Notes: generated by a model not told the origin, from the letters alone. 64,000 nucleotides of DNA from Alphaproteobacteria bacterium (GCA_015062345.1 SUUV01000001.1:21588-85587); one strand, 5' to 3'; numbered from the stretch's first letter, positions 7,397 through 53,408 are shown. Program-made: numbers and translations.

Positions 7397-8185
7397 ATGA
7401 AATATACAAATCAAAATGGTCGTTCAATTCTTGTCAAGTGTGATTTAGAAGCGCAGGCTTTTTTGAGTGCCGTGTATAAAAGCAATACACAAACGAAAAA
7501 AAGACAAGCTGATAAATTGCAATGCGGAAGAAGTATGGTAGAGATGCTTGGCGTGCTTGCTATTATCGGTGTTTTATCGGTAGGAGGTATTGCCGGCTAT
7601 TCAAAAGCCATGAACAAATTTAAAATCAACAAAACCACAGACCAGGTTTCCGTTCTTGTTGCAAATTTGCGTACGATGTTTGCAGCTCAAGGAAACTATA
7701 GTGGATTAACCGTTAAAACCGCAATAGATTTTGGTGTTGTCCCTGATGATATGATTACAACAAGCACAACCACAGGAGGGGAAGGCAATGAAACAACCAC
7801 CTCAACAACACTTAAAAATGCATTTGGCGGAGATGTTGAAATTGCAGTATCTCCGGTTAAAAATGGTGATACAGACAGCGCATTTTATGTTGCATATGAT
7901 GGTTTGTCACAAGAAGCATGTGTAACACTTGCAACCGGTGACTGGGGTTCCGGTCAAGCCTCCGGTTTAATAGCCATGATTGCAGCTCCTTCTTTAGCAA
8001 CTGCCAAAGCTGCTGCCGCAAACGCATATGCTAACGGTAATGGTGTGGCAGGCTCAGCTACTACGGCGGCAGTAGCTCAACCGGGTGGAAGTACCCTTAA
8101 AACCCCAATGCCTGTTGCAAATGCTGTAGCAAGTTGTACTGCTGCACAAAATGCCACTCCTGCAGTGCTTTGGAAATATTACTAA
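7397..8185 (+). CDS. type IV pilin-like protein (prepilin-type N-terminal cleavage/methylation motif)
   Basis: G|RSMVEMLGVLAIIGVLSVGGIAGY has Glu at +5 after the Gly and a hydrophobic N-terminal helix. A strong AGGAAG RBS precedes the ATG. The C-terminal region is rich in Ala, Gly and Thr. Confidence 0.6.
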   Translation: MKYTNQNGRSILVKCDLEAQAFLSAVYKSNTQTKKRQADKLQCGRSMVEMLGVLAIIGVLSVGGIAGYSKAMNKFKINKTTDQVSVLVANLRTMFAAQGNYSGLTVKTAIDFGVVPDDMITTSTTTGGEGNETTTSTTLKNAFGGDVEIAVSPVKNGDTDSAFYVAYDGLSQEACVTLATGDWGSGQASGLIAMIAAPSLATAKAAAANAYANGNGVAGSATTAAVAQPGGSTLKTPMPVANAVASCTAAQNATPAVLWKYY

Positions 8186-21182: not shown

Positions 21183-21779
21183 ATGAAAAAAATTTTATTG
21201 TTGGCAGGTGTTGCCTCTTTGGTTGCCACTCAAGTTAGTGCTACCGAATATAATCCGTATGTAGCTGCTCGTTTGGCTCGTGTAGAAGTTAAAAACGATA
21301 TGACTACCATAGATTTTCAAGAAAAATTAAATGATGACCAATTCGGTTACAGATTTGCAGGCGGTGTAATGGTTCCTTTCTGCGGCGGTATGGCTGAATC
21401 TGTCAGAGCAGAAGTAGAATACGGTTTGTTGAACAAAACTCATAACAACATTTATTCAAATGTCATCCAAAGCAAATTGCAAACAGTGTTTGCCAATGTT
21501 TACTATGATTTGGATACAGGCACATCGTTTAATCCTTATATCGGTGTAGGTTTAGGTTATGCTCGCATTGATGAAAATAATTCGGGCAGAGAAGCAAAAG
21601 AAGAAAATTTTGCTTATAATGTAGGTGTAGGCGTAAGCTATAACTTGTCATACAAAACAGACCTCGAACTCGGTTATCGTTTTACCGATTATGGCAAAAT
21701 TAAGCAAAATGGTGCTGATTATGCTAAGAGAAGTTACGATTCTCAAGAAATTCTCGTAGGTTTCAGACATATGTTCTAA
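21183..21779 (+). CDS. outer-membrane beta-barrel protein (OmpA-like/Opa-like 8-strand family)
   Basis: Signal peptide MKKILLLAGVASLVATQVSA, alternating amphipathic strands, aromatic girdle residues and a C-terminal Phe (GFRHMF). Confidence 0.65.
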   Translation: MKKILLLAGVASLVATQVSATEYNPYVAARLARVEVKNDMTTIDFQEKLNDDQFGYRFAGGVMVPFCGGMAESVRAEVEYGLLNKTHNNIYSNVIQSKLQTVFANVYYDLDTGTSFNPYIGVGLGYARIDENNSGREAKEENFAYNVGVGVSYNLSYKTDLELGYRFTDYGKIKQNGADYAKRSYDSQEILVGFRHMF

Positions 21780-21828: not shown

Positions 21829-21944
21829 TAACTCTTAACCGCCAAAATAAACAATGATTATAATTTTTTATGTCCCTTAAAAAATTTAAATACTTTTTCG
21901 ACCTGACACGCAGTGCGGCTCATAGAATGACTTTTATTTAAAAT

Positions 21945-22295
21945 CGGAAAATATTTGTTTTTTATTCTCAAACTTTGCAACATACCTCCTAACTGTCACT
22001 CCGGCACTTGATGCTGAAGTCCGCCTCCTAACTGTCACTCCGGCACTTGATGCCGGAGTCCAGGTGGTAATATAGCTTTAGTTATTCCCTTAGATACCGG
22101 TGTCTATTCCAAGCTAAAGCTTGGGCACCGGTATGAAAGTAAAGGAGGCAACACCTCTACCTCATTTTTGATTTAAATTCACAATTAGACTCTTTTTACT
22201 TGCAAAAAAAAAAAACGGTTTATGATGCGTATTGAGGGGTAATTTTTACACCTTTCAAGTACATTTAAACTTAATTTTTGTAAAGGATTAAAATT
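21945..22295 (+). promoter_or_regulatory. conserved upstream module, copy A, ahead of an SCPU pilin paralog
   Basis: About 350 bp shared with 36756-37045 (reverse complement) and 47648-47956, and in its proximal part with 38781-38920. It contains the hairpin ctccggca-cttga-tgccggag (tandemly duplicated as 32-bp units in this copy), a gataccggtgtc core, a palindrome ccaagctaaagcttgg, and then TTACTTGCA-A12-CGGTT-TATGAT before the ATG. Confidence 0.75.
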
Positions 22296-22757
22296 ATGAG
22301 AAAATATTTTCTAATATCCGCTGTTGCCCTCTTGGCTGCAACATCTGCAAATGCAACCACCGATTACGCTGAAGTAACAGCTCGTGCTACCATTGAAGTG
22401 GCAACTACTATGGACTGTACAGATGTAGACTTTGGTACAATCGTTGTTAAGCAAAACAATGCCGCATCTACAGTAACTATGGATGCTGATATGGGAAAAG
22501 TATATGGAGATGGTGATATTTTATCTATAGATTCCGATGAAACATTCTTCTCTTGTAACAATGGCGATGGTATGCCTATCACCGGAATATATTTATCTTT
22601 TCCTTCATCGATAGTCCTTAGTAATGGTAATGGCGGAGAAATGACTGTTGGTTTTTCAACAAACGGAGCAGAAAGTATCGATGCTGTGCTACATATCCCT
22701 GCTAAAGTTCAGTCAGGTGATTATACAGAAACATTTACCGTAACTTACACATACTAA
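22296..22757 (+). CDS. spore-coat-protein-U (SCPU)/Csu-type fimbrial major subunit, paralog 1
   Basis: Signal peptide MRKYFLISAVALLAATSANA, a DFGTIVV motif, and a C-terminal G-Y-T-x-T-F-T-V-T-Y-T-Y beta-strand typical of SCPU/archaic chaperone-usher pilins. Confidence 0.7.
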   Translation: MRKYFLISAVALLAATSANATTDYAEVTARATIEVATTMDCTDVDFGTIVVKQNNAASTVTMDADMGKVYGDGDILSIDSDETFFSCNNGDGMPITGIYLSFPSSIVLSNGNGGEMTVGFSTNGAESIDAVLHIPAKVQSGDYTETFTVTYTY

Positions 22758-36248: not shown

Positions 36249-36755
36249 TTATTCTACAAATACTAACTGCATACTACCTACATATGTACCGGCAAGATAA
36301 TCAGCTATAGCCTCCGTCCTTATAGTTGGGGTTGAAACTAATACAACCCCTTCACTGTCAAATTCATCTGATTGCAACTCAAAATTAGGTTCTACTACAA
36401 AATGAGGGTAACTGGTTCCATCTGCATCATTTGTATGAATAAGACTTATGTAAACATCATCTATAACCAGATTTAAATCCCCCTGATAATCTGTTGTACA
36501 ATAAAAAGTATAATCAGATTTACTTGATGATACAACCATATTAGGATTAGGCATTCCGTTTGTTATAAGATCATCACCATTCTCACCTAGCATACTATTA
36601 ACGACTATAGTTCCAAAATCCATCTTTTCACAATCAAATTTAACAGCATATTCAATTTTTACTTCAGCCTCTAAAGATGTATAAGCTGTAGTAGCATTTG
36701 CTGATGTTGCAGCCATTAAAGCTACAGCAGATAAAAGAAAATATTTTCTCATCAA
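36249..36755 (-). CDS. SCPU/Csu-type fimbrial major subunit, paralog 2
   Basis: MMRKYFLLSAVALMAATSANA signal peptide, a DFGTIVV motif, and a C-terminal GTYVGSMQLVFVE. Confidence 0.65.
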   Translation of the reverse strand: MMRKYFLLSAVALMAATSANATTAYTSLEAEVKIEYAVKFDCEKMDFGTIVVNSMLGENGDDLITNGMPNPNMVVSSSKSDYTFYCTTDYQGDLNLVIDDVYISLIHTNDADGTSYPHFVVEPNFELQSDEFDSEGVVLVSTPTIRTEAIADYLAGTYVGSMQLVFVE

Positions 36756-37045
36756 TTTAATCCTTAAAAATAGTTAAACTTAATTTGAAAAGCTAAAAAT
36801 TAGCCTTCCAAGACGCATCATAAACCGTTTTTTTTTTTTGCAAGTAAAAAGAGTCGTTTAAAAGATTTAAATCAAAAATGAGGTGACGGTGTTGTCTCCT
36901 TTACCGTCATATCGGTGCCCGAACTTTAGTTCGGAATAGACACCGGTATCCAGGGAATAATTTAGCTATATTACCACCTGGACTCCGGCATCAAGTGCCG
37001 GAGTGACAGTTAGGAGGTGGTTGCAAAGTTTTGAGAAAATATTTA
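36756..37045 (-). promoter_or_regulatory. conserved upstream module, copy B (minus orientation); T12 tract at 36828-36839
   Basis: Its reverse complement aligns with copies A and D along its full length. The palindrome is changed to cgaactaaagttcg, a compensatory double change relative to caagctaaagcttg. Confidence 0.75.
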
Positions 37046-37230
37046 ATATAAACATTGTCGCCAAACGGTGATGGTGTCTAACAAACATCTCAAAACAATA
37101 GCTCCTTTTTTTGGGGAGTGGAGGATATAAGGCTTTATGCTCGAATAACTCTGACTGCGTTTTGACAGTTTGTTAGCTCCCCGCTTTGATTTTTTCTCAA
37201 GGCGGTTTTTTATTACGCATATTCTTACAA

Positions 37231-38688
37231 TCAATTAGATTTATCTTTTACTGTAACATATTTTTGATTCGGAGCATGTGAAGAAGATTGAGTTCTGATA
37301 AGCAATCCTTTATCTATGAGTGGTTTTATAATTTTATTCATAAAATGAACTCTACTTGTATATTTAGAAATAGTCATAATTTCAACCAAAGATTTAGGCT
37401 CAATACAAAAATCTAATATTTTCTCTATAAGATATGTTACTTGATCACTTACTTGATCACTTACTTGATCACTTACTTGATTACTTACTCTATGTATAAT
37501 ATCATCAAAACAATTTATTTGCCAATCTAGTTTAAATACTGTTCCATCTGTCAACATCGGAGCATATCCTGCATATATTTTTGCATACTTAGCAATATTC
37601 CTAATGCCGGACCCAAGTTCTTCTGCCCAACCTATTTCCTTAAAAAAGCGCGCAATAACAGGATTTTTCGGATATGGTGTACTATTATCCGGATTAATAT
37701 TACCATAAATATATGGTTTATTTCCGTTTTCCGCATATATTTTATTCTTTTCAATAATTAATCTGGACGGATAATGATCTGTAAACTCTCTATGCATCAG
37801 AAAATTAATTGCAATTTCTCTAAATAAAATACTCCTCAAATCAACTCGAGCATCTCCTTCTAAATAAAACGGTGAAGGCAAATGCTTAGCAATAAACATC
37901 ATTATACGCTCATAGCTTTCTATAAGATTAGTTCTGATATCATCTCTATCATCATATCTTTCAATGTTTCTGATTCTTAAAATCAAATCTGTCTTATAGT
38001 GAGGTAAAACAGATTGAATAACTTCATCTTTTCCAAACAATAAAACACAAGCTAGTGTATATCCTTCTTTACCCGATAAATAATCTGTCTTATACAAACC
38101 GGCACTTTTTAACAGCTGTTCATTTGTAAGATTCTTCCAAGGATGGTCAGCCTTCCTGATTACAGCCATTGTACGACATTTGTTTATAACATCTTCTCTT
38201 AAATGATTTATGCTGATTCCGGAATAAATATCATTTTCTGAATATGTCTTATCTTTATTAGCATACAATTTTGCAATTTGCTTTGGTTGTTGAGTAATGT
38301 CAATATCTCCATCAGCAGCACTGCGTATATAGATTTTATTACAACAAAAATGAACTTCTGAACTTGCAGGAACAAGAATATATAAAATCTGTTTACCCTC
38401 GATTTTTATTTCTTCAACCGATAAATATAAAGGAGGATTAAATTTTGAGATATTATTTATGGTATTTGTAAAATCTTTCTTCATTTGAGCAATTTTATCT
38501 TTATCAATACCCAAAACTTCACCATTATCACTAACACCCAGTAAAATATGCCCTCCCAAAGTATTTGAAAAAGCACATACGGTTTCATAAATGCTTTTAG
38601 GTAACAATCCGTGTTGTGCGCTTTTAAATTCGGTTCTTATCCCTTCACCATGAGTTATAAGTGTTTTTATATTTTCAATCATCTGCAA
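37231..38688 (-). CDS. AlbA_2 (divergent AAA / Schlafen-like) domain protein with a C-terminal wHTH; putative DNA-binding regulator
   Basis: The N-terminus EGIRTEFKSAQHGLLPKSIYETVCAFSNTLGGHILLGVSDNGEVLGI is the classic AlbA_2 signature. The C-terminal winged helix is often annotated as RecG-C-terminal-like. It contains a (VSDQ)n repeat. Confidence 0.7.
   Translation of the reverse strand: MQMIENIKTLITHGEGIRTEFKSAQHGLLPKSIYETVCAFSNTLGGHILLGVSDNGEVLGIDKDKIAQMKKDFTNTINNISKFNPPLYLSVEEIKIEGKQILYILVPASSEVHFCCNKIYIRSAADGDIDITQQPKQIAKLYANKDKTYSENDIYSGISINHLREDVINKCRTMAVIRKADHPWKNLTNEQLLKSAGLYKTDYLSGKEGYTLACVLLFGKDEVIQSVLPHYKTDLILRIRNIERYDDRDDIRTNLIESYERIMMFIAKHLPSPFYLEGDARVDLRSILFREIAINFLMHREFTDHYPSRLIIEKNKIYAENGNKPYIYGNINPDNSTPYPKNPVIARFFKEIGWAEELGSGIRNIAKYAKIYAGYAPMLTDGTVFKLDWQINCFDDIIHRVSNQVSDQVSDQVSDQVTYLIEKILDFCIEPKSLVEIMTISKYTSRVHFMNKIIKPLIDKGLLIRTQSSSHAPNQKYVTVKDKSN
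37434..37489. repeat. in-frame 12-bp tandem repeat (ttacttgatcac, three perfect copies plus a degenerate fourth) encoding (VSDQ)n
   Basis: Direct reading gives gttacttgatcacttacttgatcacttacttgatcacttacttgattacttactc. Confidence 0.8.
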
Positions 38689-38780: not shown

Positions 38781-38920
38781 TTACCTCATTTTTGATTTAA
38801 ATTCTTTAAACGACTCTTTTTACTTGCAAAAAAAAAAAACGGTTTATGATGCGACATGAGAGGTAAATTTTTGCACCTTTCAAATGTACTTAAACTTAAT
38901 TTTTGTAAAGGAATTAAAAA
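38781..38920 (+). promoter_or_regulatory. conserved upstream module, copy C (proximal 140 bp only); A12 tract at 38828-38839
   Basis: cctcatttttgatttaaat...ctttttacttgc-A12-cggtttatgatgcg...; the distal hairpin region is absent. Confidence 0.7.
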
Positions 38921-39367
38921 ATGAGAAAATATTTTCTTTTGAGCGCAGTTGCACTCTTGGCAACAACCACCGCCAATGCAACCACAGACTATGCCGAAGT
39001 AACAGCTCGTGCAGAAATTCAAGTGGCTAATGAATCTGCTTGTGATGATATAGATTTTGGCACTATTGTTGTTAAGGACGGAAACGAAGCTTTTACTATC
39101 GGATTTTCAGGAATAACCGGTGACGGAGAATCTGATGTTATATCCGTTGGCGAATATACTAAGTATATTCATTGCACAAATATGGGAGATTCTGCAAATA
39201 TCGATGAAGAGACAATAATACTAAAAAATAAAACCGGTGATGAAATGTCATTACGTCTTATGGGTGGCATTCCTAGTGATGAAGAATTTGCTGTTTATCT
39301 TGATGTTCCGAACAATGTTCATTCGGGTGAGTATACCGCTTCATTTACAATTGCTATAACCTATTAA
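38921..39367 (+). CDS. SCPU/Csu-type fimbrial major subunit, paralog 3
   Basis: MRKYFLLSAVALLATTTANA signal peptide, a DFGTIVV motif, and a C-terminal GEYTASFTIAITY. Confidence 0.7.
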   Translation: MRKYFLLSAVALLATTTANATTDYAEVTARAEIQVANESACDDIDFGTIVVKDGNEAFTIGFSGITGDGESDVISVGEYTKYIHCTNMGDSANIDEETIILKNKTGDEMSLRLMGGIPSDEEFAVYLDVPNNVHSGEYTASFTIAITY

Positions 39368-47605: not shown

Positions 47606-47647
47606 ATAAAACAGAAGTTCTGTTTAGTGTATTTTATTAAAAGTCAG

Positions 47648-47956
47648 AAAATATTTGTTTTTTCTCCTCATACTTTGCAACATACCTCCTCACTGTCACT
47701 CCGGCACTTGATGCCGGAGTCCAGGTTAAATTATATAGCTAAATTATTCCCTGGATACCGGTGTCTATTCCAAGCTAAAGCTTGTGCACCGATATGACCG
47801 TGATGAGAGACAACACTTCTACCTCATTTTTGATTTAAATCTTTTAAACGACTCTTTTTACTTGCAAAAAAAAAAACGGTTTATGATGCGTATTGAAAGG
47901 TAAATTTTTGTACCTTTCAAATTAAGTTAAACTATTTTTGTAAAGGAATTTTAAAA
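47648..47956 (+). promoter_or_regulatory. conserved upstream module, copy D; A11 tract at 47866-47876
   Basis: Aligns along its full length with copy A and with the reverse complement of copy B. It starts right after the nth terminator. Confidence 0.75.
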
Positions 47957-48400
47957 ATGAGAAAATATTTTCTTTTGAGCGCTGTTGCCCTCTTGGCTGC
48001 AACATCTGCAAATGCCGGAACTGATTATGCCGAAGTAACTGCTAAGGCTACAATTCAAGTAGCAAGTAAATTTACTTGTTCTGATTTAGATTTTGGTACA
48101 CTTGTTTTTAAACAAGGTAATGAGGCTTTTAATTACGGTATAGATGGATATTTTTCAGCAACCAATACACATAAAGACTTGATTTCTGCAAGCGGAATAA
48201 GTTTTAGTTGCGAAATGCCGAAAAATCCACAAGTTGAAGTTGCTGATATAACCTTAAAAAATGAAAATTCTGATGAACTCACTCTTAATTTGATGTTAGG
48301 AATGACCAATGAATTTTACTATGAGCCACAACTTAAAATCCCTGCCAATGTTCAACCGGGTACATATACGGGAACATTTACCATTACAATTGTAAATTAA
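47957..48400 (+). CDS. SCPU/Csu-type fimbrial major subunit, paralog 4
   Basis: MRKYFLLSAVALLAATSANA signal peptide, a DFGTLVF motif, and a C-terminal GTYTGTFTITIVN. Confidence 0.7.
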   Translation: MRKYFLLSAVALLAATSANAGTDYAEVTAKATIQVASKFTCSDLDFGTLVFKQGNEAFNYGIDGYFSATNTHKDLISASGISFSCEMPKNPQVEVADITLKNENSDELTLNLMLGMTNEFYYEPQLKIPANVQPGTYTGTFTITIVN

Positions 48401-48412
48401 GAACACACCTAT

Positions 48413-48442
48413 AAAAAAGCCCCGAGAAATCGGGGCTTTTTC
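48413..48442. terminator. bidirectional Rho-independent terminator
   Basis: A5-gccccga-gaaa-tcggggc-T5. Confidence 0.7.
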
Positions 48443-51400
48443 TTATTTTTCTTCTTCGGCTTTGATAACTTCAGGTTCTTTTTGTTCTGATGTCATGATA
48501 GCTTCGGTAACAGGCTTATCTTCAGATTTATTTTCCGAATTATCTTCGGAGTTTTCTTCTTCATCATCACCTGCAATCAAACCAACTGCCGTAGCCGTTG
48601 CCGCAACACCTGTCGCCGTTACGGCATCTGTTGCAGAACTTGCAACATCACCAACCGCCTCAGCAACACCTGTAAGAGCATCTAAAGGAGCAGATACAAT
48701 GTCATCTGCCACATTTTCAGCGCTACTTTCGGCATTTGTTGCTTCAACAGCCTCAGACATTGTTGCGGCTACCTTATCCAAATCCGTACCTTCTGAAGTT
48801 TCATCGGTTGCGGCATCTGTTGTACCCTCACCGATACCTTCTTCATTGTAGAAAATTTGGTCAACATAGATATCAACATCATCAACCGTAATATCATCAA
48901 GTTGAGTTAATATCTTGCCGTCTCGTCTGACAACCACATCATATGTACCAAACGGAACATCGGTTACAATGAAATATCCTTCCAAGTCGGCATATACAAC
49001 CGAAACATCGTTGCCTTGTTCATCAACGGCGGCAATTTCATATCCGTATAGGCGCTTTCCTTCCGGATTTGCCAAATATCCTTCAATGTTACCGAAGTGT
49101 TTGAACAAAATATCAACAGTTTTAACCGTTCCCGGTCTGAGAACTAATTTTTTGGTATCATCAACCGGCTTTAATGCCACATCTTCAACCGATTCGATAT
49201 CAACGGTTAAAATGGTTTTTTCATATGACAACAAGTCAGTCAGCAATGCCGTACCTCTTTCATCGGTATAAACATCATCAACCAAGTTATTGGCTTTCAA
49301 ACCGACACCCTCAAGCGGTGTACCGTGTTCGTCGTGAGCTCTTACAAATATAGATCCCGAACTGCTGAACTGCGAGTTGTTTGAAGTCAAAATTCTGACT
49401 CCGCCGGGCTCTTTTGCAAAACTTACATTGTAGGTTAAATATGCAGACGCATTTTTATCACTGTCATATTGTAAGGTTAACGACAAACCGCCGAACGGGA
49501 AAATTCTGGAGCCCGATACCGAATAATAGTCACGGTCGGTTTCCAAATCTCGCCTGTATGAAGCTGTCCAATATGTATATCTGTCATCACGCCATGTTAA
49601 CTTACTTGAATATTCCAATGCATCAGGATTGGGGTTTGTTCTGTAGGTTAACATATTTTCCAAAGAAAACTTATCCCAATAGTTATAAACCGTAGGCTTA
49701 ACCTCGTTTTCGTGATTGATGGCATCATAGGTGTCTTCAATTGAAACATACCAACCTCTGGAAATATTTTTCGAAATTCTTCCCACGATATCTTCATACG
49801 GAATTTCACCGTTTTCTTTTTCACCGGTTCTATAACTTACATAAAACGGCAACGCAAAAGGCAATGTTCCGTTAAAACGAAACTCGGTTTTGTTTTTCAA
49901 ATATTCATTACCGTAATATGATACCGGCGAATGCAACTCGTTATATTCATCATAAGATGCATACAATGTACCGACATAAATATCACCTTGCCATTCGGCA
50001 TGATGTCCGATATTGCCGGTGTCAAAATTGCGTTCTAAGTTATATTGAATGGAGCTTCCCTTAATGGCATACTGAAAACCTGTCATCGAAAAATACTCAG
50101 TTTCGGTTTTGGTAACCTCATCAGGAGTTTGTGTTACACCGGCCATTAAAGTTAAGTTATCGGTTAAACCATAGTAGAAGTTAGAATCTAAAACCAGAAT
50201 ATCTTTGCCTTCATACTTATTGGTTTCATAGGTTTCAACCAAATATCTCCAAGGTTGATAAGCGGCAATATTATAACCGATTTCACCTTTCTTAACCGGA
50301 CTGGTACCGGCATAATATCTTTTTTCTTCGGTTCTTACCTCACCGTACGGACCATAGAAAACAAGCTTAAATGTATTTAAACCATATGAAACCGGAATGT
50401 TGGCAAAGTTATATTGTCCGGCCTCACCGTTTTGTTTATATCCGATAAGCTGATTGTTCCAATATAACTCAACTTCCCAACCCTCAACCAAAGGACCGGT
50501 AATGTTAATGGTTTTGTTAGCACTCATCACCAAGTTTTTAAAGCTCGATGCCGTAATACCTCGACCATAACTGGCACTTGAAAAATATGAGTCGCTGATA
50601 CCGTTGATATCACCGAGTTCAAACTTTTTCAAATTGATTGCGTTCGGCGGATCGTTCAAAAGTGTTCTTCCGGCCGAAATTCTAAATGTCGGGTCATGGT
50701 CATTAGATGAGTTACCCGAAATATAGCTTATAACATCAAGTCCGGCGGCAATGGTCGAAAAGTTAAGAGCATATGAACTGCTGTCGGTATAATCTCCGGT
50801 GCTTTCCGAATATTGCAAACCTGCACCGACCTGAACGTCAAGCACCGGTGTACCGATTAGGCGCTCATCCATTTCATAGCCCTTAAAACTGTTGTCTTGC
50901 ATAGTGTAAAGGCCTTTGCTTTTACGGCGCTTATCCGCATTTAACTTAACCAATGTCGGAAACTCGGTATCACGGTCAATGTTAAGTGTCATATCGTAAA
51001 AGTCAATTTTTAATTCTATCGCCAAAAAGCGCTCTAAAAAGGATGAACTGAAGAACATGGTATCATCTAAATATTTATAATCAGATTCGACCATATCAAT
51101 TTTTGTATCGCCTTTTTGTGCGGTAAAATTGTTCAAATCAATATCAAAAACAAATTGCTTTGCGTTGATATAGTTAATTTTTACGATATTATCCTCGTTT
51201 TTATAATCAAGACCTATAAGATTAGCAAGCTGTGTCAACGGAATGTAAACCGTTTGACCCTCATTATAAGCATAAACATAATCATCAGCCAAGTAGCCTT
51301 GAACAACGGTTTCCAAAATAAGGTCCGTATCCTCGGGACGATAAGCTTCATCTTCACTTTCTTTTACAGACGACTGTTCTTCATCGGTTGTAGCATCTTG

Positions 51401-51667
51401 AGCAGTTTCAGTTTCATCATTTTCCTGCTCGGCAGATTCCTCACCGGATTCTTCACCTGCACCCTCAACAGATTCTTTTTCCGATTCTTCAGATGCTTCG
51501 TCTTCGGAAACGGCGGTTTCTTCGGTTGAAGATTGCTCCTGTTCCTGATTTTGTTTATCCTCAAGTTTTTCAACTTGTGCAGTTTCAGATGCGTCTTGTT
51601 TTGTATCGTCCGCTTGCACTGCTTTTGATAAAACTATAAGCAGTGCAAGAAGTCCGAATTTAAACAT
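48443..51667 (-). CDS. fimbrial usher-like outer-membrane protein with long acidic N- and C-terminal extensions
   Basis: About 1070 aa, immediately downstream of a PapD-like chaperone and overlapping its stop. It has a signal peptide (MFKFGLLALLIVLSKAVQA), a beta-rich central region of about 800 aa rich in Tyr and Gly, and tails rich in Glu, Asp and Ser. The family assignment rests on context and size. Confidence 0.5.
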   Translation of the reverse strand: MFKFGLLALLIVLSKAVQADDTKQDASETAQVEKLEDKQNQEQEQSSTEETAVSEDEASEESEKESVEGAGEESGEESAEQENDETETAQDATTDEEQSSVKESEDEAYRPEDTDLILETVVQGYLADDYVYAYNEGQTVYIPLTQLANLIGLDYKNEDNIVKINYINAKQFVFDIDLNNFTAQKGDTKIDMVESDYKYLDDTMFFSSSFLERFLAIELKIDFYDMTLNIDRDTEFPTLVKLNADKRRKSKGLYTMQDNSFKGYEMDERLIGTPVLDVQVGAGLQYSESTGDYTDSSSYALNFSTIAAGLDVISYISGNSSNDHDPTFRISAGRTLLNDPPNAINLKKFELGDINGISDSYFSSASYGRGITASSFKNLVMSANKTINITGPLVEGWEVELYWNNQLIGYKQNGEAGQYNFANIPVSYGLNTFKLVFYGPYGEVRTEEKRYYAGTSPVKKGEIGYNIAAYQPWRYLVETYETNKYEGKDILVLDSNFYYGLTDNLTLMAGVTQTPDEVTKTETEYFSMTGFQYAIKGSSIQYNLERNFDTGNIGHHAEWQGDIYVGTLYASYDEYNELHSPVSYYGNEYLKNKTEFRFNGTLPFALPFYVSYRTGEKENGEIPYEDIVGRISKNISRGWYVSIEDTYDAINHENEVKPTVYNYWDKFSLENMLTYRTNPNPDALEYSSKLTWRDDRYTYWTASYRRDLETDRDYYSVSGSRIFPFGGLSLTLQYDSDKNASAYLTYNVSFAKEPGGVRILTSNNSQFSSSGSIFVRAHDEHGTPLEGVGLKANNLVDDVYTDERGTALLTDLLSYEKTILTVDIESVEDVALKPVDDTKKLVLRPGTVKTVDILFKHFGNIEGYLANPEGKRLYGYEIAAVDEQGNDVSVVYADLEGYFIVTDVPFGTYDVVVRRDGKILTQLDDITVDDVDIYVDQIFYNEEGIGEGTTDAATDETSEGTDLDKVAATMSEAVEATNAESSAENVADDIVSAPLDALTGVAEAVGDVASSATDAVTATGVAATATAVGLIAGDDEEENSEDNSENKSEDKPVTEAIMTSEQKEPEVIKAEEEK

Positions 51668-51668
51668 A

Positions 51669-52439
51669 CTACTTACTGATGTTTGCCTGCAAAATTTCTT
51701 TTCCTGTGAGTCCATCTTCTAGTACCAAAGTTGTGGGTTTTGTTTTAACATCTTTTTTCAAAGAAACCGAAACTGTACGCTTTGTGTTCGGCAAATAAAT
51801 TCTGACATTGTCTGTTCTGCCGATTTCTTCACCTTTTTCATCTTTTACAATAAGTTTAACACGAGAAGAAATGTTACCTAAACGATTTAATACAACTTCA
51901 ACTTTACCGTCTTTAACTTTCGCACTTTCAACTTCAGTTTTTGCGTACAAATCTTTACCTTTTAAGATAGTAACCGGAATACCGATTGCTTGCAAAACCT
52001 TAACCGATACGGACAAAGTATCTTCTTCACCTTCTTCGGTTGCTTTTTTAACTCTGGGCATTTCAACTTCACGAACAACCAAGTGAGTAACGCTTTCACC
52101 GTCTGCCATATTACCCAAACCTTTTCTTGCAACTCTGATTGCTTGTGTTTTACCCGGTTTTAAGGTAAATTGTTTTGGTGAAAATACCAAAAAGTCTTTA
52201 GCGGAGTTTTCCATAGTTTCAACTTCTTCAAACTTACCTTGTTCGTTTTGTTTGTATTGAACCAAATTTACTCTGTATGTTTGAAGTTCGTTTGAACTGT
52301 TCATAATGTTAAGTGTTTGCGATCTTTTACGAGAATTTTCCTCAAAGTCAACAGCCATCGGGAAAATTGTAAAACCTGCATAAGCTTTAGAAACCGCTAA
52401 GCAAGCAAGTAATGTATAAAGACATATTTTTTTAAGCAT
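51669..52439 (-). CDS. periplasmic pilus chaperone (PapD-like fold)
   Basis: Signal peptide. The first domain shows the pattern FTIFPMAVDF...RSQTLNIMNSS...LVFSPKQFTLKPGKTQAIRVAR, which resembles the PapD/FimC strand pattern. Confidence 0.6.
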   Translation of the reverse strand: MLKKICLYTLLACLAVSKAYAGFTIFPMAVDFEENSRKRSQTLNIMNSSNELQTYRVNLVQYKQNEQGKFEEVETMENSAKDFLVFSPKQFTLKPGKTQAIRVARKGLGNMADGESVTHLVVREVEMPRVKKATEEGEEDTLSVSVKVLQAIGIPVTILKGKDLYAKTEVESAKVKDGKVEVVLNRLGNISSRVKLIVKDEKGEEIGRTDNVRIYLPNTKRTVSVSLKKDVKTKPTTLVLEDGLTGKEILQANISK

Positions 52440-52460
52440 TTTGTACTCCTTAAAATTATA

Positions 52461-53408
52461 TTATTGATAGATTAAATTAACTGTAAAACTTCCGGTATAA
52501 CTTCCGGCAGGTTGGTCTTTGCCGACATGTAAAGTTGCGCCGACCGCAATATTTTGAGTTGATAACCCGTCACCGGCAGGAAGCGTAAACACGGTAGACG
52601 GTGCAAAAGTAAATGTATCAACCGTCATTGAATTTGCATTATCGGAAGTCTTAATTTCCAAACTTTCAGGCGAAACACTTGCCTGAATGGTGCGTCCGGC
52701 AACACCGCTTACGGTTGCTTGTCCGGCAGTTGCATCTTTTTTTGAAAGCATGGTAACATTGTTTAATGTCACATTACCATCAGGTGCCAAAACAATTGTA
52801 CCGGCGGCAGTCGGTGAAACAACCGTACCGAAACTCATATTCGAAATGTTGGAAATTGTAATCGGGTTATCGGTCTCAACCGCAACTTGTAAAGTGGCAT
52901 CGGGTGTATCATCAATTACGGCAATACCTTCTTCATCAGCCAAACTGTACGGAATGTTGACACTTCCTTTATAGGTATCTGTTTCACAAAAACCCGAAAT
53001 CTTAACGCTTGCTCCGATATTTATTTTTCCGTTAGGTTGGTCGGGTGTTAAAAGAACGGCTGTCGGAGTTGCCGTAAAATTTGAAAATGTAATGGTGCAA
53101 CCATCACCTTCAATGGTAGCCGTAGGCATTTCATTGTTAATAAGAACTACTCTGTTTGCAGTTTCTCCCTCGGCAAAATCATATGTAAAGCTTAAAACAC
53201 CGGCATTTTTAATGTGCGTACCTTGAACAAAAGCTCCTACCAACTCAACATCACCGTTGGTAGCAAGCACCGCTGAAGATTCTTTTTGGGATAAAATTAT
53301 CTTACCTAAATCCATAAAATCTGTGTTTTCAACAATTAAATCGGCAAAACAAGGCGTTGATGCCAAACATAAAGACATAAATGTAACAAAATTTCTAACT
53401 TTAACCAT
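52461..53408 (-). CDS. two-domain SCPU-type fimbrial subunit (tip or adhesin-like)
   Basis: Signal peptide, an internal MSFGTVV motif (compare DFGTIVV in the paralogs), and a C-terminal GSYTGSFTVNLIYQ. It is the first gene of the chaperone-usher operon. Confidence 0.55.
   Translation of the reverse strand: MVKVRNFVTFMSLCLASTPCFADLIVENTDFMDLGKIILSQKESSAVLATNGDVELVGAFVQGTHIKNAGVLSFTYDFAEGETANRVVLINNEMPTATIEGDGCTITFSNFTATPTAVLLTPDQPNGKINIGASVKISGFCETDTYKGSVNIPYSLADEEGIAVIDDTPDATLQVAVETDNPITISNISNMSFGTVVSPTAAGTIVLAPDGNVTLNNVTMLSKKDATAGQATVSGVAGRTIQASVSPESLEIKTSDNANSMTVDTFTFAPSTVFTLPAGDGLSTQNIAVGATLHVGKDQPAGSYTGSFTVNLIYQ

Follow-up and report, generated by a model that had tools for sequence, protein, structure and literature searches.

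The closest described parallels to the locus considered here come from three kinds of surface structures. In Bordetella, a single chaperone/usher/tip operon (fimBCD) serves major-subunit genes located elsewhere (the unlinked fim2, fim3, fimX and fimN), and the length of a C tract sets the transcription of fim2, fim3 and fimX (PMC1891110). In classical and archaic chaperone-usher systems, the donor strand is an N-terminal extension of the subunit in which hydrophobic residues alternate, whereas the groove is lined by the C-terminal strand F, whose carboxylate is anchored by the chaperone (PMC4654587). In the Mycoplasma vlp family, as summarized in PMC2268961 (citing Citti and Wise 1995), each gene is turned on or off independently of the others when the -35/-10 spacer gains or loses bases. 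Here we analysed a 64,000-nucleotide (nt) stretch of a metagenome-assembled genome (MAG) of an Alphaproteobacterium (GCA_015062345.1, SUUV01000001.1:21588-85587; NCBI locus tags E7016_), called the window below, which is AT-rich (about 37% GC) and carries a minus-strand operon (53408 to 48443) and four dispersed small genes. Our analysis favours, with some reserve, the view that these genes specify a DUF4402-type chaperone-usher-like fibre, whose shaft subunit would be provided in trans by a dispersed, phase-variable multigene family with poly-A promoters.

Every open reading frame (ORF) that the original prediction, made from the sequence, had proposed for the operon and for the four small genes was found where it had been placed. 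The features of the operon are the following (aa, amino acids).

52461..53408, minus strand: two-domain DUF4402 subunit, 315 aa, operon gene 1, candidate tip subunit (Pfam DUF4402, E 1.5e-30, in two stretches; alignment with the paralogs)
51669..52439, minus strand: PapD-like periplasmic chaperone, 256 aa (PapD_N, E 2.1e-7; Polaromonas chaperone homologue)
48443..51667, minus strand: divergent usher-like outer-membrane protein, 1074 aa from M17, in an ORF open back to 51715
48414..48441, both strands: bidirectional terminator hairpin common to paralog 47957 and the usher gene, 12-bp stem with 6 G-C pairs and T/A runs on each side

The gene order is thus subunit, chaperone, usher, and the 21-nt gap between the 315-aa and 256-aa genes carries an AGGAG ribosome-binding site (RBS). 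The longest usher ORF (51715-48443) encodes 1090 aa, but the start is almost certainly the ATG at 51667 (M17), which lies 1 nt past the chaperone stop and gives a 1074-aa protein that begins with a normal signal peptide; the NCBI annotation is also of 1074 aa. The small gene at 47957 was expected to be convergent to the usher gene and to share a terminator with it, and the 12-bp stem indeed lies between their stops at 48400 and 48443. The operon contains no single-domain DUF4402 gene, the two-domain 315-aa protein being the only subunit that it encodes.

The chaperone is recognizable by sequence. As predicted, the 256-aa protein matches PapD_N (PF00345) above the Pfam cut-off (E 2.1e-7, 31.4 bits versus 23), and it is 29% identical (E 1e-25) to a Polaromonas 'fimbria/pilus periplasmic chaperone' encoded in the same type of cassette. 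In NCBIfam it matches only weakly, and the models concerned describe fimbrial chaperones of the TcfA type and others rather than Csu; no usher model and no subunit model matched in that search. The 1074-aa protein has no match to PF00577 (Usher), PapC_N or PapC_C in Pfam, where its sole match is a CarboxypepD_reg domain near the C terminus. PF00577 is matched weakly by 5 of 44 usher-family members (best E 1.9e-6), and by none of 10 sampled distant members.

The usher plan consists of a 24-strand barrel, whose plug is inserted between strands 6 and 7, flanked by one N-terminal and two C-terminal domains. We aligned the usher core (about 835 aa) with 43 homologues (alignment A1) and predicted its structure with AlphaFold2 (pLDDT 84.3). 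DSSP finds in this model, in order, an N-terminal mixed domain, 6 long strands, a compact 6-strand insert, 18 long strands and two beta-sandwiches, so that the plug is inserted after barrel strand 6 and the last C-terminal domain is the CarboxypepD_reg-like one. With a barrel of 6 + 18 strands, an insert, and the N-terminal and two C-terminal domains, the architecture of an usher is therefore present at the level of the predicted fold. In a Foldseek search of the PDB, the top 18 matches of the model are all FimD or PapC (E 4.4e-29 to 5e-13), with 11-12% identity, and unrelated barrels (LptD, porins) score far worse; hhalign places the first C-terminal domain on FimD residues 710-788, a weak but collinear match to CTD1 (E 0.083). 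The proposed usher-like protein of about 1070 aa was thus borne out as regards its predicted fold, and was not as regards its sequence family, neither PF00577 nor NCBIfam matching it. By its predicted architecture this protein is an usher, outside the sequence family that defines ushers in databases, and the lack of a PF00577 match argues, as far as sequence goes, for a position outside the described clades. We hold with high confidence, for the machinery, that this is a chaperone-usher-like pilus operon.

This usher family is large. Searching the A1 profile against 1.84 billion cluster representatives yielded 2,688 usher-family representatives at E<=1e-30; the best 150 matches are nearly all full-length, and some lower ones are giant proteins aligned only through repeated prealbumin-like domains. 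In the 10 distant members sampled, a C-terminal CarboxypepD_reg/SdrD_B-like domain is common to all, a Cu_amine_oxidN1-like N-terminal domain is found in several, and a C-terminal SPOR or OmpA peptidoglycan-binding domain in some. In cultured bacteria the cassette is intact and reads DUF4402, DUF4402, 'fimbria/pilus periplasmic chaperone', 'carboxypeptidase regulatory-like domain-containing protein'; such cassettes are carried by plasmid 2 of Polaromonas sp. JS666 and by a replicon of Pseudoalteromonas xiamenensis. In a closer metagenomic relative, the order is a two-domain DUF4402 gene, two single-domain genes, the chaperone and the usher. The single-domain subunits encoded within the operons of relatives have an A-T-I-V extension, a DFGT motif and a GxYxGxYT..Y end, and in-operon subunits with such paralog-like features occur in relatives from three proteobacterial classes. 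In the literature collection that was searched, no paper mentions DUF4402 or PF14352. One distant usher-like homologue, with a SPOR domain, was found elsewhere (L003, GCA_054016475.1, JBPMCY010000079.1, 8001-14589), together with a 335-aa DUF4402 protein and a Wzy_C protein, all inside a flagellar cluster (flgE, flgG, flgH, flgI, flgK, FlgT_M). This context hints that some DUF4402 systems are tied to flagellar or sheath structures.

The four small genes of the window encode the following proteins.

22296..22757, plus strand: small DUF4402 paralog, 153 aa (DUF4402 E 2.7e-5, 25.2 bits, equal to the cut-off)
36249..36752, minus strand: small subunit paralog, the most divergent, 167 aa counted from its ATG, with no Pfam match and 22 aa inserted ahead of the C-terminal strand
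38921..39367, plus strand: small DUF4402-like paralog, 148 aa, the copy that was modelled (DUF4402 16.4 bits)
47957..48400, plus strand: small DUF4402 paralog, 147 aa (DUF4402 E 1.4e-5, 26.2 bits versus a cut-off of 25.2)

The strand of copy 36249, left unstated in the original prediction, is minus. The two-domain 315-aa protein scores 106.9 bits against DUF4402 (PF14352, gathering score 25.2 bits), which two small paralogs (47957 and 22296) also reach; 38921 falls below it and 36249 has no match. Despite these low or missing scores, copies 38921 and 36249 are clearly paralogous to the rest. Across the four genes the signal peptides (MRKYFLLSAVAL..ANA) are almost the same, and the mature parts are 29-50% identical to one another, exactly the combination of kept export signals and diverged mature regions that had been described. 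The DFGT motif and the C-terminal strand motif are common to the small paralogs and to the operon's own 315-aa subunit; as proposed, the small genes are paralogous and belong to the same family as the two-domain subunit. A hidden Markov model built from the copies found no further copy within the 64-kb window.

The C-terminal motif G-x-Y-T-x-S/T-F-T had been taken for a donor strand. The 315-aa protein and three of the four small genes have it exactly, and copy 36249 has a looser form (GTYVGSMQLVFVE). The proposed role is not supported: known donor strands are N-terminal extensions (PMC4654587), and this motif very probably corresponds to strand F, which would line the acceptor groove and serve as chaperone anchor. 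The best-conserved mature segment of the paralogs, T-T-D-Y-A-E-V-T-A-R/K-A-T-I-Q/E-V-A, comes immediately after the signal peptide and places A, V, A, A, I and V at alternate positions; this conserved N-terminal extension is likely to be the donor strand. In a model of the 148-aa paralog built from 97 sequences (pLDDT 84.6), the segment that follows the signal peptide is unstructured and the remainder forms a beta sandwich. Foldseek gave no significant match to this model, only a weak resemblance to Fim, Pap and Caf1 pilins, and CsuA/B is matched no more closely than the classical pilins are. In the 315-aa protein, domain 1 is not preceded by an N-terminal extension, and an extension-like strand, DATLQVAVE, separates the two domains, an arrangement that fits a tip subunit in which domain 1 would be completed in cis and domain 2 would accept the first shaft subunit.

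The assignment of the system to the archaic sigma/Csu type, with SCPU pilins and a C-terminal donor strand, has to be given up as a label. PF05229 (SCPU) has no match at E<=1 in any of the five subunits, which match DUF4402 (PF14352) where they score at all, and PF00577 has none in the usher. There are real likenesses: the subunits are small, of the thin-pilus type, with two conserved cysteines as in archaic pilins (PMC4654587), a two-domain tip subunit, a chaperone and an usher are all present, the donor strand is likely N-terminal as in Csu/CupE, non-classical systems have a similarly wide phylogenetic spread (PMC4654587), and DUF4402 and SCPU could be distantly related. Nevertheless, a major subunit is encoded within each Csu operon, Csu too has an N-terminal donor strand (PMC4654587), contrary to the C-terminal strand of this proposal, and the weak NCBIfam matches of the chaperone point away from Csu. 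We regard a Csu-type system as improbable.

The four small genes turned out to be a sample. A homologue search with one paralog returned 138 proteins, of which 22 bear the source MAG's E7016_ tags and several others are encoded on its contigs; adding the three remaining window copies gives at least 25, and probably about 30, paralogs in the source genome. The four paralogs of the original prediction are thus present but underestimate the family, of which the source genome has at least 25 members and a sister genome at least 24. Paralogs are also numerous in the sister MAGs IJF12_ and IJ019_. Among 120 listed homologues, 115 begin with MRKYFL, 108 contain exactly two cysteines and 91 have a C-terminal tyrosine. 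In contrast with this multiplicity of subunit genes, the usher homologues (n=84) show only one usher per MAG. A scan of reference genomes for the promoter described below, with a variable gap, found at least 24 copies in one sister MAG (RGIG4267, roe-deer colon); nearly every one has an MRKYF paralog 60-72 nt downstream, each with a different mature sequence. Assemblies visibly break at the repeated module of promoter and signal peptide, many paralog copies being located at the ends of contigs.

Since promoter, RBS and signal peptide are present in all copies, these are expression loci and not silent cassettes, and gene conversion from silent cassettes (of the Neisseria pilS type) was rejected as the main mechanism. 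The history of the genes could be examined in one pair, copy 38921 and its allele on an ENA contig (88% aa identity), the only sufficiently close allele pair. Codons 41-130 differ by 11 non-synonymous versus 1 synonymous substitutions (dN/dS about 3), an 11:1 excess that rests on 12 substitutions and is not significant alone, and codons 1-40 have a dS of 0.64 and a dN/dS of 0.15. These different values indicate that the 5' end has a history separate from the rest of the gene, which is mosaic; the sequences suggest that paralogs have exchanged the conserved 5' module and that selection on the exposed part is relaxed or diversifying.

That the dispersed genes supply shaft subunits to this usher is a proposition in which we have moderate confidence. 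Relatives hold single-domain DUF4402 genes in the operon and the operon here lacks one, which designates the small dispersed genes as its candidate shaft subunits. The MRKYF proteins might instead be a monomeric, secreted or outer-surface variable family unrelated to the operon, with a beta-sandwich domain by chance. Their dispersal, with only one gene adjoining the operon, their marginal Pfam scores (25-26 bits, 16 bits, none) and their weak structural similarity to pilins could be read in this way. Such a coincidence would leave unaccounted for the domain, the DFGT motif and the C-terminal strand motif that they have in common with the operon's own subunit, the same features in in-operon subunits across three proteobacterial classes, the missing single-domain gene, and an N-terminal segment that alternates like a donor strand and is unstructured in the monomer model. 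We consider it highly improbable.

Upstream of the small genes, about 135 nt of DNA are near-identical in the alignment of the four window copies. The module reads, in order, box ACCTCATTTTTGATTTAAAT, about 10 variable bases, GACTCTTTTTACTTGC, poly-A, CGGTT, TATGAT, hairpin, AAGGA, ATG.

47831..47956, plus strand: promoter and 5' untranslated region (5'UTR) module of paralog 47957, with box ACCTCATTTTTGATTTAAAT, GACTCTTTTTACTTGC, A11 at 47866-47876, TATGAT at 47882-47887, hairpin at 47893-47920 and RBS AAGGA
38783..38920, plus strand: promoter/5'UTR module of paralog 38921, poly-A at 38828-38839 (A12)
36753..36884, minus strand: promoter/5'UTR module of paralog 36249, A12, read as T12 on the plus strand, at 36828-36839
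22159..22295, plus strand: promoter/5'UTR module of paralog 22296, poly-A at 22204-22215 (A12)

The promoter core motif occurs in the window only at the four paralogs, and their poly-A tracts are the only homopolymers of 10 bases or more in the 64 kb. In all 28 copies compared (4 from the window, 24 from the sister MAG), the poly-A lies 5 nt upstream of TATGAT, and the 16 bases before and the 12 bases after the tract are invariant; the tract itself is A12 in 20 copies, A11 in 3, A10 in 2, A9 in 2 and A8 in 1. If TTTACT is taken as the -35 element, the spacer is of 16-18 nt at A8-A10. A sigma-54 reading of the TTGC element was rejected, as no GG stands at the required spacing in the sequence. 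A scan of metagenome contigs with the promoter pattern gave a single chance match, without an A-run, in a contig of 51% GC. The idea of antigenic, serotype-type variation, proposed from four genes, is strengthened by this regularity: dozens of copies per genome each have the same promoter and a poly-A tract.

Some further features accompany the module. A 9-bp 5'UTR hairpin (TTGAAAGGT...ACCTTTCAA; window 47893-47920 and equivalents) is found in every paralog, with G-U pairs and a few compensating changes, but its covariation is not distinguishable from shuffles (84.7% paired versus 83.2%, only one pair being changed on both sides). In a sister MAG (L005, JAFTYO010000045.1), a promoter copy at 7803 (A11) is followed, on the minus strand, by a gene for a 219-aa protein, MRKICELG|RSMVEMLGVLAIIGVLS, which has a type-IV-pilin-like prepilin N terminus (G at -1, E at +5) and no Pfam match, suggesting that the module marks a wider surface-appendage regulon. 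One promoter copy (L023) has no recognisable gene downstream. A repeat of about 190 nt precedes three of the four promoters, at 47640-47830 (plus), 21940-22158 (plus, with a 39-nt internal duplication at 21997-22061) and 36885-37060 (minus), and also occurs in L024 and L046; it lies 155-158 nt before the promoter core, and copy 38921 lacks it. In one assembly of locus 36249, two such repeats stand in tandem, 244 nt apart. The repeat folds as a multi-hairpin (z -5.15), one hairpin having compensating changes (CCAAGC/GCTTGG versus CCGAAC/GTTCGG). It had no match in the scans of metagenome contigs or in the scan of viral contigs, and Rfam gave nothing over the window at gathering thresholds, nor permissively upstream of 47957, except one tRNA elsewhere. 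Possible identities for this repeat are a small mobile element, an insulator or terminator, and an RNA.

Tract lengths at single loci were compared for seven paralogs, in independent assemblies that encode exactly the same protein (40 tracts, all from consensus assemblies).

Locus 47957: A11 in three, A12 in two
Locus 38921: C+A12 in two, A13 (C->A) in one, A12 without the C in one
Locus 22296: A12 in four, A9 in one (downstream sequence differs, possibly a chimeric contig, L041)
Locus 36249: A12 in eight
Locus P0110: A12 in four
Locus P0118: A12 in seven
Locus P0149: A12 in six, A11 in one

The length is thus polymorphic between independent assemblies at four of the seven loci, which, in consensus assemblies, gives weak support to variation in place. 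The pattern is compatible with a mutable tract that has a favoured state, and also with a constrained static element and some noise.

These data bear on an alternative that keeps the same machinery and the same family but has no stochastic switch. One trans-acting regulator would act at the conserved box, the A-tract would be fixed, as a bend or UP-like element, and the copies would be specialised, being expressed together or by condition. The upstream box ACCTCAwwTTTGATTTAAAt is well suited to a regulator, the promoter copy that drives a type-IV-pilin-like gene in the sister genome suggests a surface-appendage regulon, and the spacers are non-canonical at every observed length. A purely fixed element is harder to reconcile with the tolerance of lengths 8-13 among copies, with the differences between samples at 4 of 7 loci, with the fact that the A-run is the sole variable element in an otherwise invariant 40-nt core, with the absence of such long homopolymers from the rest of the window, and with the Bordetella fim promoters, which place their tract between the activator site and the -10 (PMC1891110). 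The two models do not exclude each other. On its own, a regulon without a switch seems to us rather unlikely.

Several observations weigh against a phase-variable chaperone-usher fibre, and concern each of its parts. Regarding the tract, the A12 mode is sharp (20 of 28 copies) and three of seven loci are invariant across 4-8 assemblies; A12 makes up about 83% of the same-locus tracts, which fits a selected static element as well as it fits a resting state; and single-base differences in a 12-mer could include assembly error, the A9 of L041 being possibly chimeric. Regarding the promoter, no standard 16-18 nt spacer exists at A12, since TTGCAA gives 15 and TTTACT 20, and a consensus promoter scan calls no promoter at the common module. 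Regarding the subunits, the link between the dispersed genes and the usher is circumstantial, and the small size of the 11:1 excess noted above limits the case for selection. Regarding the machinery, hhalign and BLASTP against E. coli FimD, FimC and FimA gave no significant match (hhalign for FimD and FimA), profiles of the subunit and of the usher retrieved no chaperone-usher protein from the PDB, and single-sequence searches likewise gave no such match there.

With these reservations, the phase-variable fibre would work as follows. The operon 53408->48443 would build a surface fibre by a chaperone-usher-type mechanism from an uncharacterised family of parts. DUF4402 subunits would be capped in the periplasm by the PapD-like chaperone, then polymerised and exported by the very divergent usher, with its 24-strand plugged barrel, periplasmic terminal domains and acidic tails; we infer that subunits are joined by donor-strand exchange. 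The operon would supply the two-domain subunit, probably as tip or initiator, and the dispersed family (4 copies in the window, at least 25 in the genome, for one usher) would supply the shaft subunit in trans. Each copy would keep what the machinery needs, namely the signal peptide, the N-terminal extension, the two cysteines and the C-terminal G-x-Y-T-G-S-F-T-x-x-x-Y strand, leaving the exposed middle free to diverge. Slipped-strand changes of the poly-A run (8-13, mode 12) would alter promoter geometry and switch single copies on or off, and the outcome would be a cell population with differing pilus surfaces. The chances of stochastic switching, through an effect of tract length on transcription, appear to us about evenly balanced.

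The proposed logic would be that of Bordetella fim2/fim3/fimX combined with an A-tract in the style of Mycoplasma vlp, with about ten times the gene number. Here as in Bordetella, one operon carries the machinery and major-subunit genes lie elsewhere, each with a conserved promoter element in which a homopolymer stands between an upstream box and the -10. The tract is poly-C in Bordetella and poly-A here, the subunit genes number 3-4 there and about 25-30 per genome here, and the fimbriae of Bordetella are classical (Pfam Fimbrial/Usher), unlike the DUF4402 subunits and the usher unrecognised by Pfam described here. In Bordetella, the effect of tract length on transcription and serotype switching was shown experimentally (PMC1891110), whereas here it is inferred from sequence. 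The Vlps of Mycoplasma hyorhinis, too, form a multigene family with a conserved 5' region (promoter and signal peptide) and a divergent exposed part, but they are lipoproteins and not fibre subunits, have no assembly machinery, and are encoded by clustered genes, those described here being dispersed. With type 1 and P pili (FimC/FimD, PapD/PapC) the system has in common a PapD-like chaperone, the architecture of the usher model, the subunit-chaperone-usher order and a subunit model that resembles Fim, Pap and Caf1 pilins. It departs from them by an usher about 11-12% identical to FimD/PapC with no PF00577, PapC_N or PapC_C match, by the Cu_amine_oxidN1-like N-terminal domain in relatives and a CarboxypepD_reg/SdrD_B-like last domain, by subunits outside the Pfam Fimbrial family, and by acidic tails on the usher, with SPOR or OmpA modules in relatives.

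These tails had been noted as atypical and unexplained.

51341..51610, minus strand: acidic low-complexity N-terminal tail of the usher, about residues 20-109 of 1074 aa, 39% D/E, predicted periplasmic
48446..48835, minus strand: acidic or Ala/Thr-rich low-complexity C-terminal tail of the usher, about 130 aa, 26% D/E, predicted periplasmic

The tails are real (the N tail has 84 aa with 39% D/E, and the C tail 26% D/E), but they are not peculiar to this gene: among close relatives, acidic C tails of 60-200 aa (20-45% D/E) are frequent and N tails occur in some. They are also variable, the C tail being absent in homologue P0002 and almost so in an 86%-identical sister protein, and in distant relatives SPOR or OmpA domains occupy the C-tail position. 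In known ushers both termini are periplasmic. The tails would therefore be variable periplasmic appendages at a place where relatives hold peptidoglycan-binding modules; they are a feature of the clade and not an oddity of one gene.

Two other genes of the window adjoin small paralogs. Between two paralogs, a 485-aa ORF (37231-38688, minus strand) contains a short tandem peptide repeat, VSNQVSDQVSDQVSDQV. A short distance upstream of paralog 22296, a gene at 21183-21779 (plus strand) encodes a 198-aa outer-membrane beta-barrel protein; the same gene is present in L036, with Pfam matches to OMP_b-brl, Opacity and, weakly, Surface_Ag_2, so that a surface protein adjoins a variable subunit gene.

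Dozens of scattered genes, each with a slippage-prone promoter tract, suggest that the cell can change its pilus surface. Here such apparent surface variation, with hypervariable subunit genes serving what looks like a single assembly machine, is found in uncultured Alphaproteobacteria of animal guts and not in a classical pathogen, and pilus variation bears on the evasion by a commensal of host antibody or of pilus-specific phages. The breakage of assemblies at the repeated module matters for MAG quality. The finding also gives DUF4402, and the thousands of proteins annotated as 'carboxypeptidase regulatory-like domain-containing', a testable function: they would be the subunits and the usher of a pilus pathway missed by current family models, and surveys of chaperone-usher systems based on PF00577 would overlook DUF4402-type systems. 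More broadly, and as a tentative proposal to which we give somewhat less than even chances, DUF4402 subunits, a PapD-like chaperone and a 'carboxypeptidase-regulatory-like' outer-membrane protein may define a widespread, undescribed chaperone-usher-like branch outside Pfam Usher. In gut Alphaproteobacteria this branch would be coupled to the largest repertoire of independently switchable shaft subunits known in any chaperone-usher system (some 25-30 genes per genome, all with complete promoters and a poly-A switch, and with 5' recombination), and would amount to combinatorial antigenic variation of a pilus in a commensal.

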